Part shown: one piece after another, positions 14,242 through 45,001 of the stretch
Position numbering within the stretch: position 1 is the first letter of the stretch
Layout: each line of letters opens with the position of its first letter
Assembly (NCBI GenBank): GCA_031265875.1
Contig: JAISCA010000004.1
Location: 6,031 to 70,030 of the forward strand
Source: Propionibacteriaceae bacterium
Lineage (GTDB): Bacteria; Actinomycetota; Actinomycetes; Propionibacteriales; Propionibacteriaceae
DNA: 64,000 nucleotides
Direction of reading: 5' to 3'
Notes under the pieces: model-generated
The model's input: the letters and a program-made list of their open reading frames with translations, nothing else
Told to the model about the DNA's origin: nothing
Databases searched by the model: none
Made by a program: the position numbers and the translations under genes

Positions 14242-14410
14242 CCTAGACCGCACCATCCACCATCCACCGCCCATCGCCGATCTCCGGACCCGCTGGCTCC
14301 GGACCCAACGACCGCAGACCCGCCTAACTGACGACACCGAACCGACGACCGTACGACCCATGACCTGACCCACCGGCCGGATGGCCGGTCCGACCGAGAG
14401 GAATCCACCG

Positions 14411-17194
14411 ATGCCGCACCGACGCCGCAGCCGGCTGGGCTGGGGGCTGGCGCCCCTGGCCGCCGTCCTATTGACCGCTCTCCTGCCCACCGCCCCGGCC
14501 GCCGCCGACCCGGTGGCCCCGCCACCCGATCTGATGCTCAACGGCGGCTTCGAGACTGGCTCGGTCAGTCCCTGGACGCAGTGGCCGAACAATGTCACCG
14601 CCGTCCCGGCCAGCCCCGAGCGGGGCGATCCGGCAACTGGCGACCACTTCGCCGACTTCCCGCCGGCCTCGAACCTGAGCCAGACCGTCACAGGACTCAA
14701 ACCGGGCCAGCGCTACGTCGTCTTGGCCCAACTGCGCCAAGACCTAGATGTGACCGATTTCTTCCTCGTCCTGCGTTACTACGACGGCGCCCATGCCGGC
14801 GTGGTCGAGGCGGACAAGGTCTACGCCACCGGCTCGCAGTGGACCCAGGTCCAGATCCCCTTCCAGGTCGGGGTCGGTTACAGCCAGGTCGGCGTCTTGG
14901 CCCAGAACCTCGGCGGCGCCGGCCACGCCTACCTGGACGACGTCCGCCTGTATGAGTTGTCCGCCGCCCGTTCGGCCGTGGCCGACCGGCTGCCCCAAGC
15001 CCGGGCCGTGACCGAGGACCAGGGCACGCCCGAACAGTGGCAGGCCCTGCAGACCGCCATCGCCTGGGCCGAAGCCAGCTACCTCGACTTCGCCTTGGAC
15101 GAGGCCGCCGTCGCGACCGCCGACGCCGAGCTGGAACTGGCTTGGGGACCCTACGCCCCGCCGCCGCCCGAGCCCCCACCGGTGGTCGAAGGCGTGGTCT
15201 CACCGGGCCACACCACCTACTACGTCTCCAACCAAGGCGACGACGAGGCCGACGGTCTCAGCCCCCAGACCGCCTGGCGCAGCCTGGCCCAGCTCAACGC
15301 CTCCACCTTCGCCGCCGGCGACTCCATCCTGCTCCGGGCCGGCGACTCCTGGCAGGGCCTCACCCTGCGCCCCCAGGGCAGCGGTTCGGCCGAAGCCCCC
15401 ATCACCTTGGGCAAGTACGGCGACCCGGCCGCCCGGCCCTATCTCAACTCCGGCGACGACGCCATCACGATGGACATCTTCGACCTGGTCAAGGGGGACG
15501 ATCCGGGGCTGATCGAAGCGACCAAGACCTTCTACGCCAGCGTCCTGTTGCTCAACCAAGAGCACTGGGTCATCCGCGACCTGGAACTGGCCAACCACGC
15601 CCCGGGCTTCGCCGACGCCAACGGCGACGGCAAATTACGTAACGGCATCATGATCCTGAACGACAACGCCGGCACTCTGCGTGACATCGACGTGATCGAC
15701 AACTACATCCACGATGTGCTGGGCTCGCGTTCGGAGAAGACCTACTGGGGCGGGGCCGGCGTCATCTACACCGTCATGTTGCGCGATGAGGCGGCCCTGG
15801 CCGGCTCCAACTACGACGACATCTTGATCGAAGGCAACTACGTCCGGCGCACCAACCGGCAGGGCATCGTCGTCAACTCGCGCCAGAACCTGCGCCTGGA
15901 CATGGACCACACCGGCGAGTTGGAGGCCGCCGTGGCCGAGGGTCTGTCGCCTTGGTTCCCCAGCACCGGGGTCGTGATCCGGGACAACTACGTCAAGGAT
16001 TGCGCCGGCGACGGCATCTTGCCCCAGGTCACCGAGGCCGCCTTGGTCGAGCGCAACACGGTCGACGGCTTCAACCTGCGCAGCGGTGGGGCCAGCGCCG
16101 GCATCTGGGCTTGGAACGCCGACCACACCCTGTTCCAGTACAACGAGGCCTTCGGCGGCCACACCACCCAGGACGGCCAAGGCTACGACGTCGACTACGG
16201 CCAGACCGGCACGATCTACCAATACAACTACTCGCACGACAACGACGGCGGGTTCATGTTGATCTGCTCGCCCGGCCAGGGCAGCGACCCCGCGGCCGCC
16301 GGCCATGGCGTCAGGACCCAGGACGCCATCATCCGCTACAACGTCTCCCAGAACGACCGGGCCCGGGTCTTCATGTTCTCCGGCTACTCCGACGGGTCCT
16401 TGATCTACAACAACACGATCTACCAAGGCCCCGGAGTCAACGCCAGCCCGGTCAACTTCTGGGCTTGGAACAAAACCTACCCAACCTCGGCCGAGTTCTA
16501 CAACAACATTTTCTATCTTGAGTCGGCCGGGGCTTGGAATTACACCGATCAAGGCTTGACCATGCAGGGGCTCGTCTTCGACCACAACACCATCTACGGC
16601 CAACACACGGCCGGCGAACCGGCCGACCCGCACAAGTCGACGGCCGACCCCAAGCTGGTCGATCCGGGCAGTGGGGCCACCAACACGACGGTGGGCGGCC
16701 CTTACGTCGCCCCCGATCTGGACGGCTACCGCCTAGCCGACGACTCGCCCGCCATCGCCTCCGGTCGAGTGGTCGAGACCAGCGCCGGCCTGCCCGGCGG
16801 CCGCACCGGCGGCAACGCCGGACAGGATCTGTGGGGCGCCCCGGCGCCGGCCGACGCCGTGCCCAACCGGGGAGCGGACAACCACCAGCCGAGCGACCCA
16901 GCGCCATTGTCGTACACCGTCTCGGCCCAGGTCCGTTGCCTGGCTGGCAAGGCCTATCTGGCGGTGACGCTGTCCAACACCGACCAGACGGACTTGGCCC
17001 TGACCATGCAGACCGCCTACGGCGCCTGGATCTTCCCGACGGTGGCGGCCGGCAAATACGCCTACCACTCCTTCAGCAGCCAGGCCAGCGCCATCCCGGC
17101 CGGACAAGTCAACCTGGGCCTCGAAGCCACGATCTCAGGCCAGCCGGTCAGCCAGAACCAGGCCGTGCCCTACGCCGCCGCCGTCTGCGCCTGA
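14411..17194 (+). CDS. large secreted protein: CBM4/9-like module, linker, right-handed parallel beta-helix, Cys-bounded C-terminal domain
   Basis: Signal peptide MPHRRRSRLGWGLAPLAAVLLTALLPTAPAAA, with GAGAGGA before ATG 14411. LNGGFETGSVSPW...AYLDDVRLYE is CBM-like. HTTYYVSNQGDDEADGLSPQTAWRSL...GDSILLRAGDSW is the N-cap typical of beta-helix enzymes. Asn/Gly-rich repeats follow. Confidence 0.75.
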   Translation: MPHRRRSRLGWGLAPLAAVLLTALLPTAPAAADPVAPPPDLMLNGGFETGSVSPWTQWPNNVTAVPASPERGDPATGDHFADFPPASNLSQTVTGLKPGQRYVVLAQLRQDLDVTDFFLVLRYYDGAHAGVVEADKVYATGSQWTQVQIPFQVGVGYSQVGVLAQNLGGAGHAYLDDVRLYELSAARSAVADRLPQARAVTEDQGTPEQWQALQTAIAWAEASYLDFALDEAAVATADAELELAWGPYAPPPPEPPPVVEGVVSPGHTTYYVSNQGDDEADGLSPQTAWRSLAQLNASTFAAGDSILLRAGDSWQGLTLRPQGSGSAEAPITLGKYGDPAARPYLNSGDDAITMDIFDLVKGDDPGLIEATKTFYASVLLLNQEHWVIRDLELANHAPGFADANGDGKLRNGIMILNDNAGTLRDIDVIDNYIHDVLGSRSEKTYWGGAGVIYTVMLRDEAALAGSNYDDILIEGNYVRRTNRQGIVVNSRQNLRLDMDHTGELEAAVAEGLSPWFPSTGVVIRDNYVKDCAGDGILPQVTEAALVERNTVDGFNLRSGGASAGIWAWNADHTLFQYNEAFGGHTTQDGQGYDVDYGQTGTIYQYNYSHDNDGGFMLICSPGQGSDPAAAGHGVRTQDAIIRYNVSQNDRARVFMFSGYSDGSLIYNNTIYQGPGVNASPVNFWAWNKTYPTSAEFYNNIFYLESAGAWNYTDQGLTMQGLVFDHNTIYGQHTAGEPADPHKSTADPKLVDPGSGATNTTVGGPYVAPDLDGYRLADDSPAIASGRVVETSAGLPGGRTGGNAGQDLWGAPAPADAVPNRGADNHQPSDPAPLSYTVSAQVRCLAGKAYLAVTLSNTDQTDLALTMQTAYGAWIFPTVAAGKYAYHSFSSQASAIPAGQVNLGLEATISGQPVSQNQAVPYAAAVCA

Positions 17195-17250
17195 CCGATC
17201 TAGCGCCACCACGTCACATCAGACATAGCCACCACAGAAAGGAATCCGCT

Positions 17251-17880
17251 ATGAGAATCAAACCCAACCTGCTGCGGGGGGCCGCCGTCGGCTTCACCAC
17301 CGCCCTGCTGGCCAGCGCCGGCTTGGCCCTGGCCCAGGCCGACCCCGCCACCGACGGCAGCGTCGCCATCAGCGTCGAGATCGCAGAGACGACCGAGCCG
17401 GGTTATCTGGCCTTGAGCCTGGCCGGAAGCACGGTCGCCTTGACCGAGACGACCAGCGCCGATCCGACCCAACGCCAGTTCAGCGGTGTCCTGCCCGCCG
17501 TCACGGTGACCGACACCAGGTCCGAGGCCGACATCAGCGCCAGCGCCGCTTGGTACGTGGTGGGCCAGGTCGGCGCCTTCGCCGACGGCGCCAACACCAT
17601 CGCGGCCGACCAACTGGGCTGGACTCCGGCCTTGGCCGACGGCTACGACGACGCCGACGGCCTAGTCGCCCCCGGCGACCCGGTCGGCACCGCCCTTGAC
17701 GATCCGGCCGGGGCCGGCCTGGCCAGCTCCCAGTTGCTCTTCTCGACTGGCGACTCGGCCTTGGCCTTGGCCAGCGGGCAAACCCAGTGGTCCGCCAACG
17801 CCGGTTTGGTCTTACGTACCGCCGACACGGTGACGGCGGGCGACTACGCGGCCACCTTGACTCTGTCCCTCTTCGAGTAG
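17251..17880 (+). CDS. WxL-domain-like secreted surface protein
   Basis: 209 aa. Signal peptide ...AGLALAQA. TVTDTRSEADISASAAWYVVG and the C-terminal GDYAATLTLSLFE resemble WxL-domain architecture. A DUF916-like gene lies adjacent. Confidence 0.55.
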   Translation: MRIKPNLLRGAAVGFTTALLASAGLALAQADPATDGSVAISVEIAETTEPGYLALSLAGSTVALTETTSADPTQRQFSGVLPAVTVTDTRSEADISASAAWYVVGQVGAFADGANTIAADQLGWTPALADGYDDADGLVAPGDPVGTALDDPAGAGLASSQLLFSTGDSALALASGQTQWSANAGLVLRTADTVTAGDYAATLTLSLFE

Positions 17881-17907
17881 GCCGCAGTCGAGTGATCCGG
17901 CCTTGGG

Positions 17908-17933
17908 CCGGGACCGTCTGAGAGCGGTCCCGG
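17908..17933 (+). terminator. candidate hairpin terminator/attenuator
   Basis: CCGGGACCG-N8-CGGTCCCGG (9-bp perfect stem), 28 nt after stop 17880. No U-tract. Confidence 0.35.
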
Positions 17934-18026
17934 CTCAAGGCGCCTCTCAACCGACCGGCCCCGCGACCGGTCCCGGCCGGTGGCCGAGCCGCACCCGCCC
18001 CAGATTCGACGCTCTCAGGAGGCCTC

Positions 18027-19109
18027 ATGCGACCACCTGACCGGACGACCCGGTTCCGGCCCAGAGCCCGGCTCGGCGCCCTGATCGGCGCCGGGCTGGC
18101 CGCCCTGGCCCTCGTCTGGTCGGCCGGCCCAGGCTGGCCGGCCGCCGCCGACCCACCCAAGATCACTTGGTCGGTCCAACCCAGTGACGCCCAAGGGCCG
18201 AACGGCCGCTCCTGGGTCGAATTGACCCTCGATCCCGGCCAATCGGCGGTCGAACACATGGCCGTGCGCAACCTCAGCCCGGTCGACGTCAGCTTCCGTC
18301 TGGAGGCCGCCGACGGCTATCTGAACGACCAGGGCCGCTTCGACATGAACCCCTTCGGTCAGCCCTCGACCGGCGCCGGAACTTGGATCGACCTGGCCGC
18401 CGAGGTCCTGGTGCCCTCCGGTGGCGCCGTCGTCGTCCCCTTCACCGTCACGGCGCCGCTCGACGCCAGCCCGGGCGATCACGCCGCCGGCGTCGCCGCC
18501 AGCCTGACCCGGATCGATCCGAGTCAGCCCGACGCGGTCGCGTTGGAGGGCCGAGTCGGCTTCCGGGTCATGTTGCGGGTGACCGGGTCGGCCCGCCCCC
18601 GTTTGACGGTGACGGCCCAAGCCCATTATCGGCCGGCTTGGAACCCCTTCTCCCCCGGCGCCGTCGAGGTCGACTACGACATCGCCAATCAGGGCAACGT
18701 CCGCCTCGGGGCCGACGTCGGGGTCGAGCTGTCCAATCCGTTCCAAGACCCGGCCCTGAGCCGACCCGGCCCGGCCATCGCCGAGACTCTGCCGGGCGAC
18801 CATCGGACCGGGCAGGTCGAATTGAGCCCGGCCTGGCCCTGGTTCCGCCTCCGGGCCACCGTCGTGGTCAGCCCACGACCGGTGGCCGGTCAGCCGGCCA
18901 TCGGTCTCCTGGAGCCGGTCCTAGCCGAGATCGTGGTCTGGGCCGTCCCTTGGAGCCAATTGGTCGCCTTGGGCCTGGCCGGTTCGCTGATCTGGGCCTG
19001 GGTCCGACAGCGCCGTCGACGTCGCCTCCAGTTAGCTCAGCTCCTAGCCCAGGCCCGGGCGGACGGCCGGCGGGAGGCGGCCGAGGACGGAGCCGCCACC
19101 GTGGACTGA
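18027..19109 (+). CDS. DUF916-like cell-surface protein with C-terminal membrane anchor
   Basis: 360 aa. Signal/TM region, then ITWSVQPSDAQGPNGRSWVELTLDPGQSAVEHMAVRNLSPVDVSF, which fits the DUF916 pattern. C-terminal TM followed by RQRRRRR. AGGAGG SD. Confidence 0.6.
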   Translation: MRPPDRTTRFRPRARLGALIGAGLAALALVWSAGPGWPAAADPPKITWSVQPSDAQGPNGRSWVELTLDPGQSAVEHMAVRNLSPVDVSFRLEAADGYLNDQGRFDMNPFGQPSTGAGTWIDLAAEVLVPSGGAVVVPFTVTAPLDASPGDHAAGVAASLTRIDPSQPDAVALEGRVGFRVMLRVTGSARPRLTVTAQAHYRPAWNPFSPGAVEVDYDIANQGNVRLGADVGVELSNPFQDPALSRPGPAIAETLPGDHRTGQVELSPAWPWFRLRATVVVSPRPVAGQPAIGLLEPVLAEIVVWAVPWSQLVALGLAGSLIWAWVRQRRRRRLQLAQLLAQARADGRREAAEDGAATVD

Positions 19110-19119
19110 TCCGCCGCCG

Positions 19120-19158
19120 CCCCGCCCGACCACCACCGCTCGGTTCGGCCGGGCGGGG
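19120..19158. terminator. GC-rich hairpin between convergent genes
   Basis: CCCCGCCCG-N21-CGGGCGGGG (9-bp stem) lies between stop 19109 (+) and stop 19198 (-). Confidence 0.4.
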
Positions 19159-19197
19159 CTCAGCGGGCGCGGCCTAGTCGGGCGGGCGCGGCTGAGC

Positions 19198-20265
19198 TCA
19201 GCGGGTCTTGAAGTAACGGAAGAGGTGCTTCTCCCGGGTCAGCCCGGCCGCGACCAGACCGCCGGCCCAGGCTCCCAGGGCGGCCCAGAGAGGGACGCCG
19301 GCCACCGTCGCCCAGACCGCACTGGGGTCGGGCATGGCCCAGACCCGGATCAGGACCAGGCTGGCCGCTTCGACCACCAGCAGCGCCGGCAGGCCCCAGG
19401 CCCAGGTCTGCAGCGACAAGCTCAGGAGTTGATCGACCCGCCGTTGACCGCAGTGCAGGGCGCTGGCCTGCTCCAGCCGGCGGCGCCGGATCGAGGCGAA
19501 GCCGAGACCGAGACCGACCAGGCCGGCCACTAGAGCGGCCCAGCGGGTCGGACGGTCAGTGAAGAGAGCGTGGGCGTCCAGCTTGGAGCCCAAGCTCTTA
19601 TTGGCCTGGTCGATCATGGGTGGGCGATTCGAGCCCGCGTCCACCAGAGCGACCGCCCGTAGCAAGATGTCATTGTCATCGATCACCGGCCAGGCTCTGA
19701 TCCAGCACTCGTCGTAGAGCTCCAACGGCGTCTCCGGCAGCAGCAGGGCGAAGCTGAGCCGGGCGTCCCGGCCGTCGGAGGGCCAGGCGAAGACGCCGGC
19801 GATCTCGATCACGCCCTGGTCGCTGTCCAAGCGATCGCCGGCCGCTAGGCCCATCGACTCGGCCAGGCCGGAGTCGACCCAGACGCCGGTCTCAAGGGGC
19901 AGGCTCAGACCCAGCACGGGGCCGAAGCCGGCGGTGACCGCGAAGCTGCCCACCGGGGTGTCCGGAGCGGCCGACAGCCGGATGGCCGGCCCGGGCCGGA
20001 TCGCCCCGGCCGCCGCCACCGAGGCGGAGAGGGCCAAGCGGTCGCAGGCCGCGCCGTCGACCGCGCCTTGTGCCAGCGACAGTCTGAGGTTGGCCGCCCC
20101 GGCTTGATAAGCCGCCGCGTCCCGCTGCAGACCGTTGACGATGGACAGGTCGAGCGCCGTCAGCAGACCGGCTGAGCCGATCAGACAGAGGGCCCAGAGC
20201 AGGGCCCGGGCCGCCCCCGAAGTGAGGTCCCGCCAGGCCTCTGAGACGACCGAGCGCAGTCTCAT
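19198..20265 (-). CDS. MacB/FtsX-type ABC transporter permease
   Basis: 355 aa. N-terminal TM, a large extracytoplasmic segment and a C-terminal TM bundle. ATGA overlap with the ATPase gene. Confidence 0.75.
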   Translation of the reverse strand: MRLRSVVSEAWRDLTSGAARALLWALCLIGSAGLLTALDLSIVNGLQRDAAAYQAGAANLRLSLAQGAVDGAACDRLALSASVAAAGAIRPGPAIRLSAAPDTPVGSFAVTAGFGPVLGLSLPLETGVWVDSGLAESMGLAAGDRLDSDQGVIEIAGVFAWPSDGRDARLSFALLLPETPLELYDECWIRAWPVIDDNDILLRAVALVDAGSNRPPMIDQANKSLGSKLDAHALFTDRPTRWAALVAGLVGLGLGFASIRRRRLEQASALHCGQRRVDQLLSLSLQTWAWGLPALLVVEAASLVLIRVWAMPDPSAVWATVAGVPLWAALGAWAGGLVAAGLTREKHLFRYFKTR

Positions 20266-21020
20266 GGCACCGCGCCCAGGTCGATGACCCGGTGGCAGGC
20301 CGCCCGCACCGCTGGGTCGTGGGTCGCGATCACGACCACCGCACCGCTGGCCGCGATCTGTCCCAGGCTGGTCGACACCGTCAGGGCTGTGCGGGCGTCG
20401 AGTTGGGCCGTCGGCTCGTCCACCAGCAGCAGGTCTGGCGCGGCGGCCGTGGCCCGGGCCAGCATCAAGCGCTGGGCCTCGCCGCCGGACAGGGCCGCGA
20501 AGGGCCTCTCAGCCAACTCCGCCAGCCCGAAGCCGGCCATCAAGGCCTCGGCCTCAGCTTCCGCCCGACGGCGGGACAGGCCCCGGGCCAGCAGAGGGAA
20601 GGCGACATGGTCCAGGGCGGTGCGCCGGGCCACGCCGTGCGGGTTCTGGAAGACCCAACCGATCCGCTCCACGCCGACCCGTTCGACCCGGCCCTGACAA
20701 GGCTTCTCCCAGCCGGCCAACAACCACAGCAGGGTCGATTTGCCGCAGCCGGAGGGTCCGCAGACCCCGGTGATCAGGCCCGGCTCCAGTTCGAAATCCA
20801 AGCCCCGGAACAGCCAGTCGGTGCCGGTGAAGCGGTGCCCCAGGTCGACGCCCCGGACCGACTGCGATCCTGCGGTGAACGGCCCGCTTGGGCCGAGGGG
20901 CGCCCGTACGACCGGAGGCGACCCAGGCGGGAACTCTTTGACCCCGCCCGCAGACGATAAGGCCGTGGTCCAAGACGGCGCCGGGCTTGGCGGCGGCCCG
21001 GCCAGGGGCGACCCGGTCAT
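20262..21020 (-). CDS. ABC transporter ATP-binding protein (MacB-type)
   Basis: Walker A GPSGCGKST, signature LSGGEAQR, Walker B LLLVDEPT. Start set at ATG 21020, which forms an ATGA overlap with the adaptor gene stop; the track ORF extends to 21206. Confidence 0.85.
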   Translation of the reverse strand: MTGSPLAGPPPSPAPSWTTALSSAGGVKEFPPGSPPVVRAPLGPSGPFTAGSQSVRGVDLGHRFTGTDWLFRGLDFELEPGLITGVCGPSGCGKSTLLWLLAGWEKPCQGRVERVGVERIGWVFQNPHGVARRTALDHVAFPLLARGLSRRRAEAEAEALMAGFGLAELAERPFAALSGGEAQRLMLARATAAAPDLLLVDEPTAQLDARTALTVSTSLGQIAASGAVVVIATHDPAVRAACHRVIDLGAVP

Positions 21021-22078
21021 GGCCGAGGACATTCGGTCAGGCTGAGGCCGGCTCCCACCGCCACCTCGCTCAATGGTTCGCTCGCCTCCACCAGGCTGGC
21101 CCCCATGCCCGAACCCAAGATTCGGACCGGCACCGCCCGACCGGCCACCTCGACGCAGCCCAGCCGGCCTTCGATCCCGAACAGGGCCGTCGGCGGCACT
21201 CGCCAAGCCTCGATCCCGCTGACCAAGCGAATCGAGCCCGAGGCCTCCAGCGGGCCACCCTGCTGAAGCATCAGGTCACGGAATTGGACCTGGGCCGCCA
21301 GCGCGGCCAAGAACTGGGGGTCGGTCACCGGGTCCAGACCGATGACGCTGGTCTCCTGGCCGAACAAGGTCAAGATCCGTTCGCCCTCCACCAACTCGCC
21401 ACCGCCGGGCAAGCTCAGGTTCAGCTGAGTCGGAGCCCCGTTGACCTGCCCCACCACTCCGTCCATCGGCACTGGCCCGCCCAGGGTGACCGACCACTCA
21501 GCCACGGCGGTCTCCACCGCCGGCAGCCACATCACCCGCTCCAGGCTCAGCTCGGCCAGTCGCTCCGGCAGGCCAGCCCGCAGCTGCGCCTCCAGCCAAG
21601 CCGCCCGGGTGGCCTGAGTGAAACTGTCACTCGTCCCATCAGCCAGCAGCCCCAGCCGGTTCAACTCTTGGTTCAACGCCGCCACGTCGGCCCCGCGCAC
21701 GCCCAGGGCCAGATTGCGATAGAGCGGCACCCCGGTGTGCAAAGCCAAGACCGGCCGCCCCTCCACCCACAGGGCCACCGTGCCCGAGGTCAGTTGGCCC
21801 GGCCCAGTCAAGCTGGTCGCGGTCACCACCCCACGGGCCCCGGTGATCAGAGGAGTCCGCCCGGCCACCTCGAAGGCCACCCGCACCGTCCGCTCATCGT
21901 TGAAAGACTGGCTCGACACCGCCGCGCTGATCGGCCGCTCCCCGGCCGCCAGATCGGACGGGGCCGGCGGCGGCACCAGCCACAACCCCACCCCCAGACC
22001 GACGGCCAGGGCGCAGACCAGCCCCAAAACCACGAACGACCCCGCCCAGGGCCGTCGTGAACCTTTACCAGTCACCAT
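21017..22078 (-). CDS. membrane-anchored periplasmic-adaptor (HlyD/MacA-like) protein with a peptidoglycan-binding-like segment
   Basis: 353 aa. N-terminal TM, a lipoyl-like hairpin GVVTATSL...GTVALWVEGRPVLAL, and GVRGADVAALNQELNRLGL, which resembles a PG_binding_1 motif. It lies upstream of the ATPase and FtsX genes. Confidence 0.65.
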   Translation of the reverse strand: MVTGKGSRRPWAGSFVVLGLVCALAVGLGVGLWLVPPPAPSDLAAGERPISAAVSSQSFNDERTVRVAFEVAGRTPLITGARGVVTATSLTGPGQLTSGTVALWVEGRPVLALHTGVPLYRNLALGVRGADVAALNQELNRLGLLADGTSDSFTQATRAAWLEAQLRAGLPERLAELSLERVMWLPAVETAVAEWSVTLGGPVPMDGVVGQVNGAPTQLNLSLPGGGELVEGERILTLFGQETSVIGLDPVTDPQFLAALAAQVQFRDLMLQQGGPLEASGSIRLVSGIEAWRVPPTALFGIEGRLGCVEVAGRAVPVRILGSGMGASLVEASEPLSEVAVGAGLSLTECPRP

Positions 22079-22168
22079 GATCAGACCCTAACGCTTCGTA
22101 AAACTCACAACCAGTGATATCGAGACTCACCAGGCGGACCGCCGACCCCAACGCGGAGTCGACGCCGT

Positions 22169-22741
22169 CTACTCGACCTCCGGCTCAGTCATCTCCGACG
22201 GATCGACGTAATCCGGCACCCGCGCCCGACAGACCGCCCAAGCCAACACATCGACCGGCAACTCTGGAGTTTGATTGAAACCGGTGCAACCCTGCCCTGG
22301 CGCACAGGCCATGTCAACGAACTTGATATACCCCCAAGCGTCCATCACCACCCGCGAACCTTGACCGACCAGACACAATCCGAACTCGAAAGTCGCCGCT
22401 GGAACCGGATGCTCTGACGCGAACTCGGGGACCTCAACCCGACAGTCCCGATTCGCCTCCACCACCACCGGATTCAACAACCGATCATTACAAGCCTCAG
22501 AGGACACACCATCCTCACAGACCCCCCAGCCCACACTGAAAGCGTCCGGATTCCCCTCACTGACAGCCAGCGAATAACCAGTCCCAGCCGTCCGAGCGTT
22601 CACACACTCGACGAAAGCCTCAGCCACCGCCAACCGGCCAGACGGCGACTCCTCACCTACCGGCGCACCCGCGCAACCAACCAGAAAGCCCCCAGCCAGC
22701 AAAACCGCTGGCCACCAACGACCCGAACCCGACCCGCCCAT
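22169..22741 (-). CDS. Cys-rich lipoprotein, no family recognised
   Basis: Lipobox FLVGCAG. Many Cys residues in the mature part. GGGAGGG SD. ATG 22741 overlaps the upstream stop as TGATG. Low-G+C codon usage. Confidence 0.7.
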   Translation of the reverse strand: MGGSGSGRWWPAVLLAGGFLVGCAGAPVGEESPSGRLAVAEAFVECVNARTAGTGYSLAVSEGNPDAFSVGWGVCEDGVSSEACNDRLLNPVVVEANRDCRVEVPEFASEHPVPAATFEFGLCLVGQGSRVVMDAWGYIKFVDMACAPGQGCTGFNQTPELPVDVLAWAVCRARVPDYVDPSEMTEPEVE

Positions 22742-23385
22742 CAATCACCCTCCCACCAATAATTAAATCCCCCAGCTAGAAAACAATCATTCGCGATGAT
22801 ATCAGTCCCCGGATCGACCGGGAGATCCGAATCATCGGACGGTTCGAAGAAATCCCGCTCAAAATCCTCTACCCCATAAGACGACGGCACCAACCCCGCC
22901 TTGACCAGACACCGCACGATCACCTCACGATTATCCGCCAACAAATCAGGATTATTCTGCTGCACACCGAACAGAGATTCAATCCGAATGAGAACACCTT
23001 CCGAACAAATCAAGCTCTGCTCCCATGCCGCTCCTGGCGAAGGTTCCCCGATAATCGGATCAGTAAGATAGAGCCCGTTGCTCCGCTTGGTGTAGGTCAA
23101 CTCATAACCAGCGTCCCGCATACAACGGGCCTCCCTCAGATGGGCCTCCTCATAGTCCGCCGGATCGATCCGCCCCGTCGCTGCCGCCCGCGTGAGCACA
23201 TCCCGCTCAAAATCAGACAAATCAGGCCGCTCCAACGCACGCTGGAACAAGGTCACCAAACTATCCGCCAGCCTAGCCCCCGGCGTCACCGTCGGCACCG
23301 CCGGGCCATCTCCATCAGGCGTCCCAGAACACGCGCCCAAGACAAGGACCAACGCCACTAAGATAAACGACCTAATCCAGCCCAT
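22741..23385 (-). CDS. lipoprotein, paralogue of 24068-24709, no family recognised
   Basis: Start MGWIRSFILVALVLVLGACSG at ATG 23385, so the track ORF is trimmed. It shares the block GRIDPADYEEAHLR and three C-[LMF]-x-x-x-G motifs with its paralogue. Confidence 0.7.
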   Translation of the reverse strand: MGWIRSFILVALVLVLGACSGTPDGDGPAVPTVTPGARLADSLVTLFQRALERPDLSDFERDVLTRAAATGRIDPADYEEAHLREARCMRDAGYELTYTKRSNGLYLTDPIIGEPSPGAAWEQSLICSEGVLIRIESLFGVQQNNPDLLADNREVIVRCLVKAGLVPSSYGVEDFERDFFEPSDDSDLPVDPGTDIIANDCFLAGGFNYWWEGD

Positions 23386-23465
23386 TGCACCAACCCCATT
23401 TGACTCGAGACCCGGGCTGGGTTCAGGCGTGAACCACATCACGCCTGAACCCAGCTTGCGAACTT

Positions 23466-23783
23466 CTACCTGAAGCTACAGCTTCCCCCGACTGCGGCGT
23501 TGGTGGTACCATTCATCTGAGCGGAAGTTACCGTATTGCCGCCGTAGAGCCAACTGGACCAACTCTGCGAAGAACCCGCCACAGCGTAAGCCCTTGACTC
23601 GTAACCGTAATTCGGATAACACCGCGTCGTTTGCTTAGTGTAGTTACCAGCAGTCGAACGCTCGGTGATGAAGGTCGCATTGCCGCTCGGGTCGTACTCG
23701 CCAGCATAGGCGACCCCCACCGAACCACCGACCAAGGCCACAGCACACCCCGCTGCGATCACAAATTTCCTCATTAAGCTCAT
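23466..23783 (-). CDS. small secreted protein (78-aa mature, two Cys), no family recognised
   Basis: AAGGAGG SD. Signal peptide MSLMRKFVIAAGCAVALVGGSVGVAYA|GEYDP. The mature part is rich in G/S/T/Y/N. The third codon is TTA. 35/60 G+C in the line starting at 23641. Confidence 0.75.
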   Translation of the reverse strand: MSLMRKFVIAAGCAVALVGGSVGVAYAGEYDPSGNATFITERSTAGNYTKQTTRCYPNYGYESRAYAVAGSSQSWSSWLYGGNTVTSAQMNGTTNAAVGGSCSFR

Positions 23784-23896
23784 ATTTCCTCCTTTGGAAG
23801 TAGCGAGCCGACAAGGTCAAGCGGATACAGCACTCGAATGAACAATCCAGCTACTGCTGAAACTGTAGATCGGAGCCACTCGTCCCGCTTGACTTG

Positions 23897-23926
23897 ACGC
23901 TAACTCAGCTCCACCCCACCTGTCAA
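23897..23926 (-). promoter_or_regulatory. candidate sigma70-type promoter for the small secreted protein gene
   Basis: The minus strand reads TTGACA-N18-TAGCGT, with the -35 at 23926-23921 and the -10 at 23902-23897. Confidence 0.3.
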
Positions 23927-24067
23927 CGGTTTCGACCCATCCAAAGTGATAACGAATCGTGACCGCAGAACATGACTCTACGACTCAACGTAACCGGCGA
24001 CTCTGGGACGCTCTTGTTCTCGTTCGAGATGTAGCTGGCACCAGGCCCGACTGGCCCCATCGTCACT

Positions 24068-24709
24068 TCAGGGCGAGAAGACGTACCCGGCCCCGCGCAA
24101 GCATTGTCTGACCTCTGGATCTCTCACATCGAAGGGCGCGTTGGCGAAGGGCGACTGGCCCGGCTCGGCGGCGGCGTCACGCTTGAAATCATCCGCGCTG
24201 TACGAATCCGGCGCCAGACCAGTCTCGCGCAAACAGCGAGCCGTCTTCACCGGACTGTCCAATAGAAGATCGGGGTGGCTCAGCTGATATACGAACATAG
24301 TTTCAATACGGTATAAGAAACTCCTGTAACAGGCCCCTGAGACGGCTCTGAACTCATCCGTCAGTTCCGGCATGACCCACTCGGCCATCACATACAGGCC
24401 GTCGGAGCTTTGCGAATAGATCGCCTCGAAACCGGCCGCCCTTAGACAGCGGTCGAAGCGCAGGTGGGCCTCCTCGTAATCCGCTGGGTCGATCCGGCCC
24501 GCCGCCGCCGCACGGGTGAAGACCTCGATCGCAAAATCCGACAGGGCGCCGCTGTCCAATTCCCGTTGGAACAGCGCCACCAGACCATCCGTCGTTCTGA
24601 CCCCCGGCGTGGCCGTCAGCTCCGCCAGGTCGGCCGTGCTCGGCGTTCCGGAGCAGGCGCCCAAGGCCAGGGCCAAGGCGGCCAGCAGGCCGAACTTGAA
24701 CCACCTCAT
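24068..24709 (-). CDS. lipoprotein, paralogue of 22741-23385, no family recognised
   Basis: 213 aa. Lipobox ALALGACSG. Block GRIDPADYEEAHLR. Motifs CLRAAGF, CLRETGL and CLRGAGY. Confidence 0.7.
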   Translation of the reverse strand: MRWFKFGLLAALALALGACSGTPSTADLAELTATPGVRTTDGLVALFQRELDSGALSDFAIEVFTRAAAAGRIDPADYEEAHLRFDRCLRAAGFEAIYSQSSDGLYVMAEWVMPELTDEFRAVSGACYRSFLYRIETMFVYQLSHPDLLLDSPVKTARCLRETGLAPDSYSADDFKRDAAAEPGQSPFANAPFDVRDPEVRQCLRGAGYVFSP

Positions 24710-24855
24710 CTAGCGCCCCTTCACCAGGACTCGCACCGGGACCACGCTGGCCTGGCCGATTCCTCGACCCTAACTAGGCCTCGAATCCTCTGTCAACGAC
24801 CGGGCTGAGTCCCTTCATCACGCAACCGACGTGGACGCGGCTCTAAAACCCGGCC

Positions 24856-25779
24856 TCAGCCCTTGACCGAGCCGGACATCAGGCCGCCCACGAAATACTT
24901 GCCCAGCAGGATGTAGACCAGCAGGGTGGGCAGGGAGGCCATGATGGCGCCGGCCATCGAGGCGCCGTAATCCTGCAGCATCGAGCCGCCGGCCATCGAG
25001 TACAAAGCCAAGGTGACCGGGCCGTTGTTGCCGGAGGAGAAGAACAGGGCGAACAGGAAATCGTTCCAGGCCGAGGTGAACTGCCAGATCAGCACCACCA
25101 CGAAGCTCGGCACCGACAACGGCAGGACGACCCGGGCGTAGGTGCTGAGCATGCCGGCCCCGTCCACCCGGGCGGACTCGATCAACTCGTGCGGCACCGA
25201 CTCGTAATAGTTACGGAAGATCAAGGTCGTGATCGGGATGCCGTAGACGACGTGGAGGAAGATCAGCGAAGGCGTCCCGGCCGGCAGACCGAGGCCGTGG
25301 ACGATCTGATACAGCGGCACCATGACCGACTGATAGGGGATGAACATGCCGAACAGGATCAAGGTGAAGACGACGTTGGCGTAGGGGAAGCGCCAGCGCG
25401 ACAGCACGAAGCCGTTCATCGAGCCCAGAAAACTGGAGATGATGGCGGCCGGCACCACCATGCCGACCGTGCGGCCCAGGGCCGGGCCGATGGCGGGCAG
25501 GCCCTTGTAGCCCATCCAAGCCGCTTTCCAGTTCTCCAAGCTCCAGTTCTCGGGCAGGTACCAGGCCTGCGAGGCGGTGGCGCCCTCCTTGAAAGAGGTG
25601 ATGACCAGGACGTAGACCGGGATCAAGACCACGACAAGGAAGAAGAGGAGCAAGAGGTACCGCACCAGGCGGCCCCAGTTGAAGCCCTTACCCTTGTGGC
25701 GGACGGCGGGCGCGGGATCGTACAAAGTCTTGGACTCGGCGGGCAGGGCGGCCTTAGACAAAGTGGCGGACTGGGACAT
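24856..25779 (-). CDS. ABC sugar transporter permease (MalG-like)
   Basis: Starts MSQSATLSKAALPAE at ATG 25779, so the track ORF is trimmed. EAA loop is IESARVDGAGMLSTYARVVLPLSVP. Confidence 0.88.
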   Translation of the reverse strand: MSQSATLSKAALPAESKTLYDPAPAVRHKGKGFNWGRLVRYLLLLFFLVVVLIPVYVLVITSFKEGATASQAWYLPENWSLENWKAAWMGYKGLPAIGPALGRTVGMVVPAAIISSFLGSMNGFVLSRWRFPYANVVFTLILFGMFIPYQSVMVPLYQIVHGLGLPAGTPSLIFLHVVYGIPITTLIFRNYYESVPHELIESARVDGAGMLSTYARVVLPLSVPSFVVVLIWQFTSAWNDFLFALFFSSGNNGPVTLALYSMAGGSMLQDYGASMAGAIMASLPTLLVYILLGKYFVGGLMSGSVKG

Positions 25780-26678
25780 CACTTCTCCTTCTTCGCCATA
25801 CGCACCAGGTAGGGCACGATCAAGACCAGGACGAAGGCCAGCAGGATGACGCCGACGGCGGCGGCGCTGGCGTAGTAGTACTGCGACTTGAAGATGTACA
25901 TGTCGACGGCCGGCACCTTGGTCTGGTAATTGGCCGGCTTCGAGATCGACACGATCAGATCGAAGGCCTTGAGCGACATGTGCCCGATGATGATGAGAGC
26001 GGACAAGGCGACCGGTGAGAGCTGGGGGAAGAGGACGTGGCGGTAGAGCTTCCACTCACTGGCCCCGTCGACCCGGGCGGCCTCCCGCAACTCGTCTGGG
26101 ATGCCCCGGAAACCGGCCAAGAATAAGGCCATGACATAACCCGACAGCTGCCAGATGGCGGCCATGGCGATGGCCATGATGCCAATGGAGTTGTTGTTCC
26201 ACCAGTTGTTCTGGAGGAAGTCGAGGTGGAGCATCTGGAACAAGCGGTTGAGACCGGAGGCGCGGACGCCCTGGTTCGAGTTGAGCAGCCAACGCCAGAT
26301 CACGCCGGCCGCCACCGAGGAGACCGCCATGGGGAAGAGGAAGACAGTCCGGAAGATGCCCTCGAAGCGGTCCCGTTTCTCCAACAGCCAAGCCCACAGG
26401 AAGCCCAAGAACATCGTCCCGGCTAGGAAGGTGACGGTGTAGAGGACCAGGTTCTTGAGCGAGTGTTGGAAGGCGTCCGACTTGAACAGGTTGATGTAGT
26501 TCTCGAACCAGACGATCCGGTGCGGGGCCAAGCCGGTGGTCTGGGGGGCGGACGAGATGTCGGTCAGCGAGGTCTGGAAGTTAGCGATGATGAGGGCGTA
26601 GACGAAGACGCCCACCAGAACCAGCGACGGCGAGATCAGCAGCAACGGTGGCCCGTACCGTTTCAACTTCTTCGGCAC
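25779..26678 (-). CDS. ABC sugar transporter permease (MalF-like)
   Basis: 299 aa. EAA loop REAARVDGASEWKLYRHVLFPQLSP. Confidence 0.88.
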   Translation of the reverse strand: MPKKLKRYGPPLLLISPSLVLVGVFVYALIIANFQTSLTDISSAPQTTGLAPHRIVWFENYINLFKSDAFQHSLKNLVLYTVTFLAGTMFLGFLWAWLLEKRDRFEGIFRTVFLFPMAVSSVAAGVIWRWLLNSNQGVRASGLNRLFQMLHLDFLQNNWWNNNSIGIMAIAMAAIWQLSGYVMALFLAGFRGIPDELREAARVDGASEWKLYRHVLFPQLSPVALSALIIIGHMSLKAFDLIVSISKPANYQTKVPAVDMYIFKSQYYYASAAAVGVILLAFVLVLIVPYLVRMAKKEK

Positions 26679-26690
26679 TGTGGTCTATTC

Positions 26691-26722
26691 CTTCGGTGAA
26701 GGGGCGGTCCCGCCCTCCGAAG
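26691..26722 (-). other. intercistronic GC-rich stem-loop between the binding-protein and permease genes
   Basis: CTTCGG..GGGCGG-TC-CCGCCC.CCGAAG nested stems, lying between stop 26763 and start 26678. Confidence 0.5.
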
Positions 26723-26762
26723 AGGACGAGACCGCCCGCCTGATTTAGGTCGAGCCTACGGC

Positions 26763-28040
26763 TCAGGCCATGGCCTGGGCCAGCTCAGCCTGGAAGGTCT
26801 CGATGTCAGAGGCGCCGGAGGTGAACTTCGACACCGCCGCGGTGATGGTGTTCAACTGGACGATGGTGGCCGCCGCGCCGTGCTGGAGCGAGGGAACGAT
26901 GGTGTCGTTCTTGAAGGAGGCGATGGCGGTCTGCTGATAGGTCGAGAAGTCCGACGGGGTGATGTCGGTCCGCGCCGGGATCGAACCCTTGATGCGGTTG
27001 AAGGCGACCTGCCCGTCGAGCGAGGAGATCGTCTGCAGCCAAGCCTTGGCCCCCTCCGGATGCGGAGCGTTGGTGGTCAAGGTGAAGGAGTCGGCCAGGA
27101 AGTCGAAGACGCCGACCGTGCCGGGAGCCGGAGCGTAGACGTAATCCTTGCCGTCGACCTGGTTCTTGGAGTCGAAGTTGGCCGGAGCCCAGTCACCCAT
27201 GATGTTGAAGGCGGCCTCGCCGTTGATCAACATGGTCGAGGGCTCTTCCCAATCCAGGGAGTCGCGGTCCTCGTTGGTGTACGTGATCAACTTGTTGAAG
27301 ATCTCCAGGGCGGCCTTGACCTGACCGGACTTCCAGTCGGTCTTGCCGTCCCACAGCCCGTTGTAGGCGTCGGTGCCGAGTTCGGCGATGAGGACGACCT
27401 CGAGCAGGTGGACCTGGGTCCAGACGCCACCGATCGACAGCGGGACGATGTCCGGGGAGGCCGCCTTGATCTTGTCCAAGGCCTCGATGAAGGCCGACAT
27501 GCTGGCGAACTCGGCGGTGGCCTGCAGGCCGGCCGCCTCCAGCACAGGCACCGAAGCCCAGATCACGTTGGCCCGGTGGATGTTGGACGGGATCGAGTAG
27601 ATCTTGCCGCCCGAAGTCAGCAGGTCGATCAGATCGGACGGGAAAACGCTGCGCAGGTTGAACTCGTCGTAGAGCGAGGAGATGTCCTCGACCTGACCAG
27701 CCAGGATGTAGTCCTGGATCTCCAGGCCGGCGTGGGCCTGGAAGCTGTCCGGCGGGTCGCCGGCGTCCAGACGGTCCTGCAGCAGGTTCTTCGAAGAACC
27801 ACCGCCACCGGCCACGGCGCCGTTGACGAAGTTCACATCGGGGTGGTCGCGGTCGAAGACCTGGACCATGGCCTCGAGGCCGAGGGCCTCGGAGCCGGTC
27901 GACCACCAGGTGAAGACCTCGACCTGCTCAGTGGCAGCCGTGTTATCACCATCGGGTTTGTCATTGTTGCCGCTGCAACCGGTCAGGGCCAGGCAGCCGG
28001 CGGTGACCATGGCCGCAGCCACTTTCGCGAATCGCTTCAA
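26763..28040 (-). CDS. ABC sugar transporter substrate-binding lipoprotein (CUT1)
   Basis: GGAGGA then TTG at 28040 gives MKRFAKVAAAMVTAGCLALTGCSG, a canonical lipoprotein signal. The track start at 28052 would place the SD inside the ORF. Confidence 0.85.
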   Translation of the reverse strand: MKRFAKVAAAMVTAGCLALTGCSGNNDKPDGDNTAATEQVEVFTWWSTGSEALGLEAMVQVFDRDHPDVNFVNGAVAGGGGSSKNLLQDRLDAGDPPDSFQAHAGLEIQDYILAGQVEDISSLYDEFNLRSVFPSDLIDLLTSGGKIYSIPSNIHRANVIWASVPVLEAAGLQATAEFASMSAFIEALDKIKAASPDIVPLSIGGVWTQVHLLEVVLIAELGTDAYNGLWDGKTDWKSGQVKAALEIFNKLITYTNEDRDSLDWEEPSTMLINGEAAFNIMGDWAPANFDSKNQVDGKDYVYAPAPGTVGVFDFLADSFTLTTNAPHPEGAKAWLQTISSLDGQVAFNRIKGSIPARTDITPSDFSTYQQTAIASFKNDTIVPSLQHGAAATIVQLNTITAAVSKFTSGASDIETFQAELAQAMA

Positions 28041-28283
28041 CGTGTCCTCCAAGTGTCTTTGAATCGTCTATCGGGGCGCGAGAGAGAGACTCTTAGGCCA
28101 GGCTTGGTTCTGCGCCGCGCCACTGCCATGACGACTGTCTCCCGCCTCAGGCCTGGGCCAGCTGACTGCGACGTCACCGGCTCAAGCGCGTTCATAGGGT
28201 GAGGCCCAGACTGCTCCATTGGCCGTCTATCGTGCAAGTCGTGGCGGGTCGACGTAATAAAACTGTGATGTACCATTCAAGTT

Positions 28284-44846: not shown

Positions 44847-44991
44847 GCCTTTCCTAATGTGAAAAGTTACAAGACTAGTGGAGCGGTCCTTATGGGACGG
44901 ATATAACAAATCGTGACAATGATTAGAAAGCAGGCCGGACGACACCTGCGACGCCGACTTTGAGCTATCCAATCCGGGACATTTTCGGAGA

Positions 44992-45001
44992 GTGTATACA
45001 C
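44992..45001. promoter_or_regulatory. perfect palindrome GTGTATACAC upstream of the peptide ABC operon (candidate operator)
   Basis: Lies in an AT-richer 280-bp gap, about 146 nt upstream of start 44846. Confidence 0.3.

Follow-up and report, generated by a model that had tools for sequence, protein, structure and literature searches.

What do four small secreted proteins of deviant base composition do directly ahead of the genes of a transporter of the ATP-binding cassette (ABC) type? This question is raised by a locus of seven minus-strand genes (D, C, B, A, PGB, ATPase, and PERM, in their order of reading; Table 1) in a stretch of 64,000 nucleotides, here called the window, from a metagenome-assembled genome (MAG) of a Propionibacteriaceae bacterium (GenBank assembly GCA_031265875.1, contig JAISCA010000004.1, positions 6,031 to 70,030 of the forward strand). 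The product of D is identical to the NCBI entry "hypothetical protein LBK54_01070". An initial annotation of the window described the first four genes as a horizontally acquired module of secreted proteins serviced by a MacB-type exporter, and named a toxin or bacteriocin with immunity lipoproteins among its possible functions. The latter has turned out to be the best-supported reading, since true Lactococcin_972 proteins occupy the position of C in 13 homologous loci. The locus probably encodes a Sec-dependent, bacteriocin-like protein (C), together with a lipoprotein and a MacB-like ABC system conferring self-immunity, and would represent the actinobacterial counterpart of a lactococcin 972 (Lcn972)-type locus.

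The basic gene structure is as the initial annotation described it. The first four open reading frames (ORFs) all lie on the minus strand and hold Sec or lipoprotein signals, with the lipoboxes and the AYA|G cleavage site where they had been placed. B and A share a TGATG overlap, while PGB and ATPase, as well as ATPase and PERM, are coupled by ATGA.

The order small gene, B, (A), PGB, ATPase, and 355-residue PERM recurs in unrelated neighbourhoods in Propionibacteriaceae, Microbacteriaceae, Micromonosporaceae, Bifidobacterium, and Streptomyces. A census in which one genome per species was scanned with a PERM profile, and in which two peptide patterns were required so that the total is a lower bound, yielded at least 43 loci, all of them from Actinomycetota (Propionibacteriaceae MAGs, many Microbacteriaceae, Micromonosporaceae, two Bifidobacterium, and one Streptomyces). 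The proposed linkage of the four genes to the ABC genes is therefore found in other genomes, which supports a functional tie. The four proteins are not, however, the equivalents that they were taken for: B is the core, D is an extra copy of B, A is confined to certain lineages, and the variable element is C. Because B lies immediately upstream of the PGB gene in 38 of the 43 species-level loci, it is a core component rather than variable cargo, and makes up a conserved fourth part of the transporter module. Several copies of B are found in five loci, and A in two.

The slot directly upstream of B is where the link to known bacteriocins becomes visible. In 13 of the 43 loci, a local search with hidden Markov models (HMMs) detected a Pfam Lactococcin_972 protein, always in that slot. 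The slot proteins of four of these loci (L025, L026, L048, and L050, in the numbering used here) score 37–49 bits against a gathering score of 22 (E 1e-12 to 4e-9), the scanned hosts being Leifsonia, Compostimonas, Rathayibacter, and a Microbacteriaceae isolate. A gene of the C family fills the same slot in nine loci, and inspection of the ORF upstream of B where the C HMM was silent revealed another small, secreted, Cys-containing protein in at least four more. C therefore holds the position of a known bacteriocin family.

C carries an N-terminal Sec-type signal peptide (MSLMRKFVIAAGCAVALVGGSVGVAYA|GE...), and its mature form is a protein of 78 residues with two cysteines, in the same size class as Lcn972 (66 residues) and propionicin T1 (65 residues). 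An AlphaFold model contains six beta strands, with pLDDT values of 80–93 over residues 31–105, and mature C is confidently predicted to be a six-stranded beta-sandwich. Foldseek searches with this model returned generic small beta-sandwiches only (best E 0.037), with 2LGN and 9HKJ outside the top 50. A word-indexed protein search found three clusters for C and five for D, so that both seemed to be orphans, and a profile search widened the C family to 12 clusters, which include Cellulosimicrobium, Oerskovia, and Microbacterium, among others. A candidate relationship to RSL-type fucose lectins, obtained with a five-sequence profile (E 0.07), vanished with the 12-sequence profile. One member of the family, P0012 from Oerskovia jenensis (L007/L008, 8001–8288), is named "Lactococcin 972 family bacteriocin" in UniRef; this name, which the Pfam and NCBIfam models do not support, may be a propagated cluster name.

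The small gene is also set apart by an RNA element. The inverted repeat between C and B forms a hairpin with a perfect 17-bp stem and a 6-nt loop (dG -41.7 kcal/mol, z -4.6), located 10 nt past the stop codon of C and 30 nt ahead of the start of B. Equally strong hairpins, with stems of 15–22 bp, directly follow the small gene in all eight loci that were folded (the window, L001, L002, L003, L004, L008, L020, and L025, one of them with a true Lcn972 gene). The stems of L001 and L004, which are close relatives, are homologous to that of the window, and the other stem sequences are mutually unrelated; the hairpin after the small gene is thus conserved in structure but not in sequence. None of these hairpins has a U-tract, and the element is probably an attenuator, a terminator, or a 3' stabilizer. 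Upstream of C, a TTGACA box (23926–23921) is separated by an 18-nt spacer from TAGCGT (23902–23897), a pair that could be a candidate promoter of C itself, and a strong ribosome-binding site, AAGGAGGA, precedes the ATG of this gene. A consensus scan called no promoter at 23784–24067, and found no sigma-70 consensus promoters or U-tract terminators above chance.

B and D are paralogous, with 49% of 178 compared residues identical (E 1e-48), and both are recognized by the B-family HMM (1.1e-60 for B and 1.9e-53 for D). The initial annotation had considered that none of the four proteins could be assigned to a family. This holds for the public collections, since HMM searches of C, B, D, and A against Pfam and NCBIfam matched zero families; what escaped it was the paralogy between D and B and the extent of their family, for which an exhaustive profile search collected 773 representative clusters with a threshold of E<=0.001, 283 with E<=1e-10, and 64 with E<=1e-30. 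Members sampled from this family (about ten per look-up) are called "hypothetical protein" where they are named, and hold no significant Pfam domain. The AlphaFold model of D is moderately confident and of the alpha+beta type (pLDDT 74), the B/D structure model having been built from only five sequences. A comparison with the PDB returned no structural neighbour of this model (best E 0.7, TM-score about 0.2), and B has no sequence match to solved structures, so the assignment of a fold to B and D was given up. B is likely to be the recognition or immunity partner of the small protein. Extra copies of B, with or without a small gene, occur as D in the window and in L013, L015, L024, L040, and L045, as orphan immunity genes do, and D is a candidate for an orphan or additional immunity lipoprotein.

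The third lipoprotein, A, is rich in cysteines, with eight further ones in its mature part, and is found only in the clade of the window, in Oerskovia/Cellulosimicrobium, and in one Microbacterium. It would be a lineage-restricted accessory component, belonging to a family separate from B. The possibility that A is a diverged B paralogue was rejected, the only shared feature being an 18-column motif, 'EA...C(L/M)...G' (probability 2.8%). In L002 (6157–9100, equal to L011 392–2900; LBJ44 / Gsp477_bin63 MAG), the position of D, between the sugar-ABC operon and the C gene, holds several A-family paralogues and fragments (one of 151 aa, one of 148 aa, and two overlapping partial matches), as though additional lipoprotein genes had accreted in this stretch.

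The three downstream products had been called an adaptor, an ATPase, and an FtsX permease. For the adaptor and the permease there is no Pfam match as such, but the profile support, although weak, is consistent. PGB has a single N-terminal transmembrane helix (TM) at residues 15–31, according to hydropathy, and a PG_binding_1 domain at about residues 117–168 (Pfam E 9e-4), whose profile matches the peptidoglycan (PG)-binding domains of endolysins (E 6e-7 to 2e-6). Weak lipoyl/biotinyl matches cover residues 61–107 and 156–227 (E 0.004–0.05), the matches to MacA are weak (E 0.14–0.3), and there is no HlyD match in Pfam. This is the pattern expected of an adaptor similar to membrane fusion proteins, in which the PG_binding_1 domain would stand between lipoyl-like halves, in the place where an alpha-hairpin is expected.

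The ATPase is recognized by ABC_tran of Pfam (6e-26), and its NCBIfam matches, all below the cutoffs, are to AztA (128 bits), FtsE (118), LolD (113), L_ocin_972_ABC (111), and MacB (90), and also to CydD. Its ORF (20262–21206) reaches about 60 codons upstream of the ATGA-coupled start. From the latter, the protein begins with a Pro/Ser-rich extension of about 70 residues ahead of Walker A. Gene calls in relatives range from 216 to 255 aa and differ at both ends, compared to 252 aa here; as judged from these lengths, the extension may be unconserved.

PERM, according to alignment-averaged hydropathy, has TMs at residues 22–38, 243–259, 291–307, and 324–340, with an extracytoplasmic loop of about 200 residues after the first one, and this predicted layout (TM1, loop, TM2–4) is that of the MacB/FtsX topology. 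No match was obtained in Pfam (FtsX PF02687 and MacB_PCD), in NCBIfam (including the Lcn972-associated models), or with a shallow profile in the PDB. A 35-sequence profile, run against 177,635 PDB sequences, gave four matches, all of them to MacB-type permeases and in register (E 0.14–6.6): MacB twice, the HrtB-like 7W78_B, and Spr0695. The comparison with one FtsX protein by hhalign resulted in a probability of 5.5%. The term "MacB-type tripartite system" seems reasonable as an architectural description of the predicted proteins.

Table 1. Features of the locus, with positions counted from the first nucleotide of the window.
Feature	Coordinates	Strand	Description
Whole locus	24709 down to 19198	minus	D, C, B, A, PGB, ATPase, PERM
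D	24068-24709	minus	ORF; 213 aa; lipobox LGAC
Intergenic region 5' of C	23784-24067	minus	284 nt
C	23466-23783	minus	ORF; 105-aa precursor; signal peptide ending AYA|G
Hairpin between C stop and B start	23416-23455	minus	inverted repeat
B	22741-23442; more plausible ATG at 23385	minus	ORF; 214 aa from the ATG at 23385; lipobox LGAC
A	22169-22741	minus	ORF; 190 aa; lipobox LVGC
PGB	21017-22078	minus	353 aa; PG-binding, adaptor-like
ABC ATPase	20262-21020	minus	252 aa; ATGA-coupled to both neighbours
PERM	19198-20265	minus	355-aa membrane protein

The base composition that first drew attention to the locus is indeed deviant. The earlier counts on single 60-nt lines (30/60 G+C at 23821, 35/60 at 23641, and 47/60 at 20401) were reproduced exactly, and sliding windows give a G+C content of 0.54–0.60 over 22000–24400, compared to 0.69–0.76 in 19000–22000. 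The lowest 2.6-kb window in all 64 kb starts at 22001 (0.588, with a mean of 0.674 and a standard deviation of 0.029), confirming that this islet differs from its flanks. The G+C content at third codon positions (GC3) amounts to 0.77 for D, 0.65 for C, 0.61 for B, and 0.66 for A, and lies between 0.85 and 0.93 in every neighbour. Measured in this way, the anomaly resides in codon usage and not in amino-acid composition, and is limited to these four genes. The A/T-ending codons and the TTA codon noticed before are also present: A/T-ending codons make up 23–38% in the islet genes versus 7–15% in the flanks, and D, C, and B hold one TTA codon apiece. This step in GC3 is common to the Propionibacteriaceae relatives, but is missing in Micrococcales operons, where all six genes have a host-like GC3. 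The sugar-ABC genes (24856–28052) were rejected as part of the islet, with a GC3 of 0.90–0.93; because this value is host-like, their lower total G+C is compositional only.

The absence of an integrase, a tRNA gene, or a flanking repeat, as stated in the initial annotation, was confirmed. No tRNA gene lies in the window, and the only notable direct repeat within 18500–26000 is the one due to the B/D paralogy, with no flanking pair. No Rfam family was matched in 19000–25500, long intergenic regions included. The second-lowest G+C kilobase of the window (0.564 at 44001–45000) corresponds to a minus-strand gene at 43146–44852 for a family-5 peptide/nickel-type substrate-binding lipoprotein (SBP_bac_5, E 1e-49), which adjoins a second SBP_5-like gene (41483–43018).

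Concerning the proposed horizontal acquisition, the front part of the locus does show foreign-like codon usage and raised synonymous divergence (dS). However, the whole array is syntenic in L001 and L002, where the locus adjoins the same sugar-ABC operon. When the window was compared with its close relatives L001 and L004, the flanking genes exhibited dS values of 0.11–0.21. C is the most divergent gene between these strains (dS 0.59–0.75, with 64–67% amino-acid identity), followed by B (0.32–0.69) and by A and D (both 0.27–0.37), so that the synonymous divergence of C, B, and A is 2–5 times that of the flanks; dN/dS, the ratio of nonsynonymous (dN) to synonymous divergence, is 0.24–0.49. As dN and dS are both raised, the comparison indicates older alleles set between conserved flanks by recombinational exchange of a cassette, and not only fast evolution in place. 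The pattern of divergence points to a front cassette, C-B-A(-D), that is swapped between strains; such an exchange would account for the deviant codon usage of these genes, and allelic cassette exchange is a better fit than the insertion of an island. Horizontal acquisition is thus best applied to this cassette alone, and not to all seven genes of the array. In addition, the similarity of B to that of the window, normalized to the similarity of PERM, has a median of 0.91 in C-type loci and of 0.38 in Lcn972-type loci. B appears to co-diversify with the type of small protein, a correlation in which phylogeny is only partly controlled.

The surroundings of the locus vary among strains and species. 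L001, L002, and L004 belong to close Propionibacteriaceae, and the gene downstream of PERM differs in L002 and L004 (a two-component system or DUF1684/rhodanese), this flank being strain-variable. In the window, the PERM gene is convergent with a plus-strand cluster (14381–19109) encoding three secreted or surface proteins: one of 937 aa with CBM_4_9 and right-handed beta-helix domains, a secreted one of about 190–226 aa without a family, and one of 360 aa with a weak match to a WxL-interacting PG-binding domain (E 0.018) and a C-terminal TM. L003, L007, and L008, which are from Oerskovia or have a Cellulosimicrobium-like small protein, are flanked by MarR and GFO_IDH genes. L005 and L006, from Microbacterium, lie near a TrwC relaxase; in L005 (Microbacterium sp. 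NPDC077663; 3136–6654 and 14342–15214), the locus is about 1.3 kb from the TrwC-type relaxase gene and adjoins a weak AfsA-like (gamma-butyrolactone synthase) gene. With such a relaxase nearby, the module might be able to move with a conjugative element. Two diverged copies of B-PGB-ATPase-PERM are present in single Propionibacteriaceae MAGs (L011 and L012 in Gsp477_bin63, L013 and L045 in Hs463_bin120, and L015 and L017 in Ast373_bin3), and among these copies are some in which no small gene could be detected or which carry as many as three B genes (in L013, on the opposite strand). The names of these MAGs suggest that they derive from termite-gut projects.

The conserved gene order, the equivalence of the slot with that of true Lcn972 genes, the hairpin, the cassette-like divergence, and the signal peptides are observations. 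In the following model, it is inferred that C is antimicrobial, that B and the pump provide immunity, and in which direction transport proceeds. C would be secreted by the Sec pathway, cut after AYA, and released as a disulfide-capable beta-sandwich of about 78 residues, with the envelope of competing relatives as its probable site of action. The hairpin probably ends or stabilizes most transcripts, which would provide abundant C mRNA and some read-through into the downstream genes. B, anchored to the membrane, would intercept the small protein at the surface of the producer as a recognition or immunity factor, and the pump formed by PGB, ATPase, and PERM, together with B, would keep the small protein off its target at the membrane surface by expelling it. 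A could be a lineage-specific accessory lipoprotein that helps B, whereas D, as an extra copy of B, could broaden the immunity to cover a different allele. Together, the C-B-A(-D) genes would be exchanged between strains as a variable cassette. A bolder version of this model is put forward more tentatively, as it may well not hold in full: B would constitute a new, widespread class of immunity lipoproteins in Actinomycetota, dedicated to Sec-dependent beta-sandwich bacteriocins, whether of the Lcn972 type, of the C family, or of other kinds, which it would recognize on the membrane surface and hand over to a PG-anchored MacB-like pump, C would found a new bacteriocin family, and toxin and lipoprotein would be swapped together while the pump stays constant.

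Several observations weigh against a bacteriocin locus of this kind. C is not demonstrably a member of the Lcn972 family, as Pfam, NCBIfam, and hhalign did not support membership and Foldseek did not return 2LGN or 9HKJ among its top 50: C and 11 relatives gave zero matches to the Lactococcin_972 models (Pfam PF09683 / TIGR01653) at E<=10, the hhalign probability of C against Lcn972 (whose sequence was verified against PDB 2LGN) was 0.13%, and that of an alignment of mature C alone against 12 Lcn972-type proteins was 2.8%. An apparent convergence of C and Lcn972 in iterated HMM searches was an artefact of the signal peptides, gone once these were removed. Kinship with propionicin T1 (Q9F6C4, verified by exact look-up) was also discarded, with an hhalign probability of 0.11% and nothing found by phmmer. 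Moreover, the labels given to B and PERM are based on weak or absent similarity to characterized proteins, the dN/dS values below 1 give no direct sign of an arms race, and what the downstream genes do in the Lcn972 loci has itself been poorly verified (PMC11796350). Finally, no small gene was detected by HMMs in 21 of the 43 loci, and the B-PGB-ABC module can therefore stand without one.

These loci without a small gene would also suit a function in detoxification or sensing, where B, PGB, ATPase, and PERM form a Bce/MacB-like system of resistance to foreign envelope-active peptides and C is a signal or inducer for a kinase. The resemblance of the ATPase to the FtsE/LolD/MacB-type group is in line with such a role, and so are the OmpR-type two-component systems that lie within 4.5 kb of the module in 8 of the 43 loci, in addition to others among the directly retrieved contexts; in L005, L006, L009, and L010, a system of this type is placed between the small gene and B. 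However, neither a two-component system nor any further copies are found in the 64-kb window, the small gene has the layout of a hairpin-terminated structural gene, and 13 loci have a true Lcn972 bacteriocin in the slot. Immunity-only islands are normal for bacteriocin systems, so the loci without a small gene do not discriminate between both explanations, and resistance to foreign peptides is considered unlikely as the function of this locus. Remodelling of the producer's own cell wall is more improbable still. It would require an FtsEX-like ABC complex with a PG-binding partner to control wall hydrolysis or synthesis, and B, A, and C to be regulators or substrates. FtsE is indeed the second-best NCBIfam match of the ATPase, PERM has the topology of FtsX, and the PG_binding_1 domain of PGB is like those of wall hydrolases. 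Nevertheless, no hydrolase domain was found by Pfam or NCBIfam in any of the proteins, the distribution of the module is patchy, with several copies in some genomes (as L011 and L012 in one MAG), and its linkage to Lcn972 also speaks against such a complex. A low GC3 and cassette-like hypervariability would, moreover, be unusual for housekeeping genes of the wall. As to the literal proposal of the initial annotation, that the four proteins are secreted or released by the tripartite exporter as its cargo, the head-to-tail arrangement of the genes and the overlaps linking B with A and PGB, ATPase, and PERM with one another are compatible with it. This proposal is nonetheless highly improbable, as all four proteins have conventional signals for Sec or for lipoproteins, which make an ABC exporter unnecessary, B is a stoichiometric, conserved neighbour and not variable cargo, Lcn972-type bacteriocins are reported to be secreted by Sec independently of dedicated transporters (PMC11796350), and in Lcn972 and propionicin T1 loci an immunity function is ascribed to the ABC genes (PMC4055356, PMC5756557). 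The preferred reading remains that of a Sec-dependent bacteriocin-like protein with its own immunity system.

The organization of Lcn972-type loci is known, and what the locus adds is C as an unrecognized candidate bacteriocin family, B as a conserved partner from a large, unannotated family of lipoproteins, and an adaptor-like protein with a PG-binding domain. Self-immunity to lipid-II-targeting bacteriocins of the Lcn972 type is poorly understood, even for the prototype, and here a conserved four-part module (lipoprotein, PG-binding adaptor-like protein, ATPase, and MacB-like permease) occurs across Actinomycetota in linkage with small secreted proteins of at least three kinds that are unrelated to each other. 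If the preferred reading is true, the B family would gain a function, gut Propionibacteriaceae would provide a new candidate bacteriocin family, and a mining rule would be available for Sec-dependent bacteriocins missed by HMMs, which should be sought just upstream of B-PGB-ABC modules and before a strong hairpin.

Among known systems, the Lcn972-type loci (lcn972-orf2-orf3 on plasmid pBL1 of Lactococcus lactis and the pneumococcal scbABC) share with this locus a small gene with a Sec signal in the first place, followed by ABC-type presumed immunity genes, and a mature product of about 65–80 residues that is an all-beta protein, as modelled in the case of C. Homologues of the B-PGB-ATPase-PERM genes of the window are found directly behind true Lactococcin_972 genes in 13 actinobacterial species. 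The membrane partner in the Firmicute Lcn972 loci is a multi-TM protein of about 650 residues. Unlike in these loci, C is not detectably a member of the Lcn972 family, and the module of the window comprises four genes, among them those of a lipoprotein and of an adaptor-like protein with a PG-binding domain; in the Firmicute loci, by contrast, two genes are described beside the structural one (PMC11796350, PMC4055356). The lcn972-orf2-orf3 cluster lifts the minimal inhibitory concentration of Lcn972 from 12.5 to 800–1600 AU/ml (PMC4055356), and in Brevibacterium an Lcn972-related gene, located on a genomic island, shares its operon with the genes of an ABC ATPase and of two TM proteins (PMC5719810).

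Propionicin T1 (pctA plus orf2 of Acidipropionibacterium thoenii) comes from the same bacterial family and is similar in that a Sec precursor of about 96–105 residues gives rise to a Cys-containing mature protein of 65–78 residues. This 65-residue bacteriocin with a Sec leader is followed, 68 nt downstream, by an ABC-like gene that is presumed to confer immunity (PMC5756557). However, it has no sequence kinship with C, and its partner is described as a single ABC-like protein of 424 aa and not a four-gene module. In the immunity systems of lantibiotics (LanI and LanFEG, such as NisI/NisFEG, with LanRK), a surface lipoprotein that intercepts the peptide is combined with an ABC pump that expels it and often with a two-component system, although the likeness is no more than an analogy: C depends on Sec and is unmodified, B lacks detectable similarity in sequence or fold to solved structures, and the pump is MacB-like and not of the LanFEG type. 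The Gram-positive MacB-type (type VII) systems, exemplified by Spr0693-0695, YknXYZ, and HrtBA, correspond to the predicted pump in their permease with four TMs and a large extracytoplasmic domain, their separate ATPase, and their adaptor with lipoyl-like halves. The system of the window departs from them in that all its matches are sub-significant and PERM gives no match to FtsX or MacB_PCD in Pfam, in the PG_binding_1 domain that takes the place of the alpha-hairpin in its adaptor, and in the addition of a dedicated lipoprotein, B.

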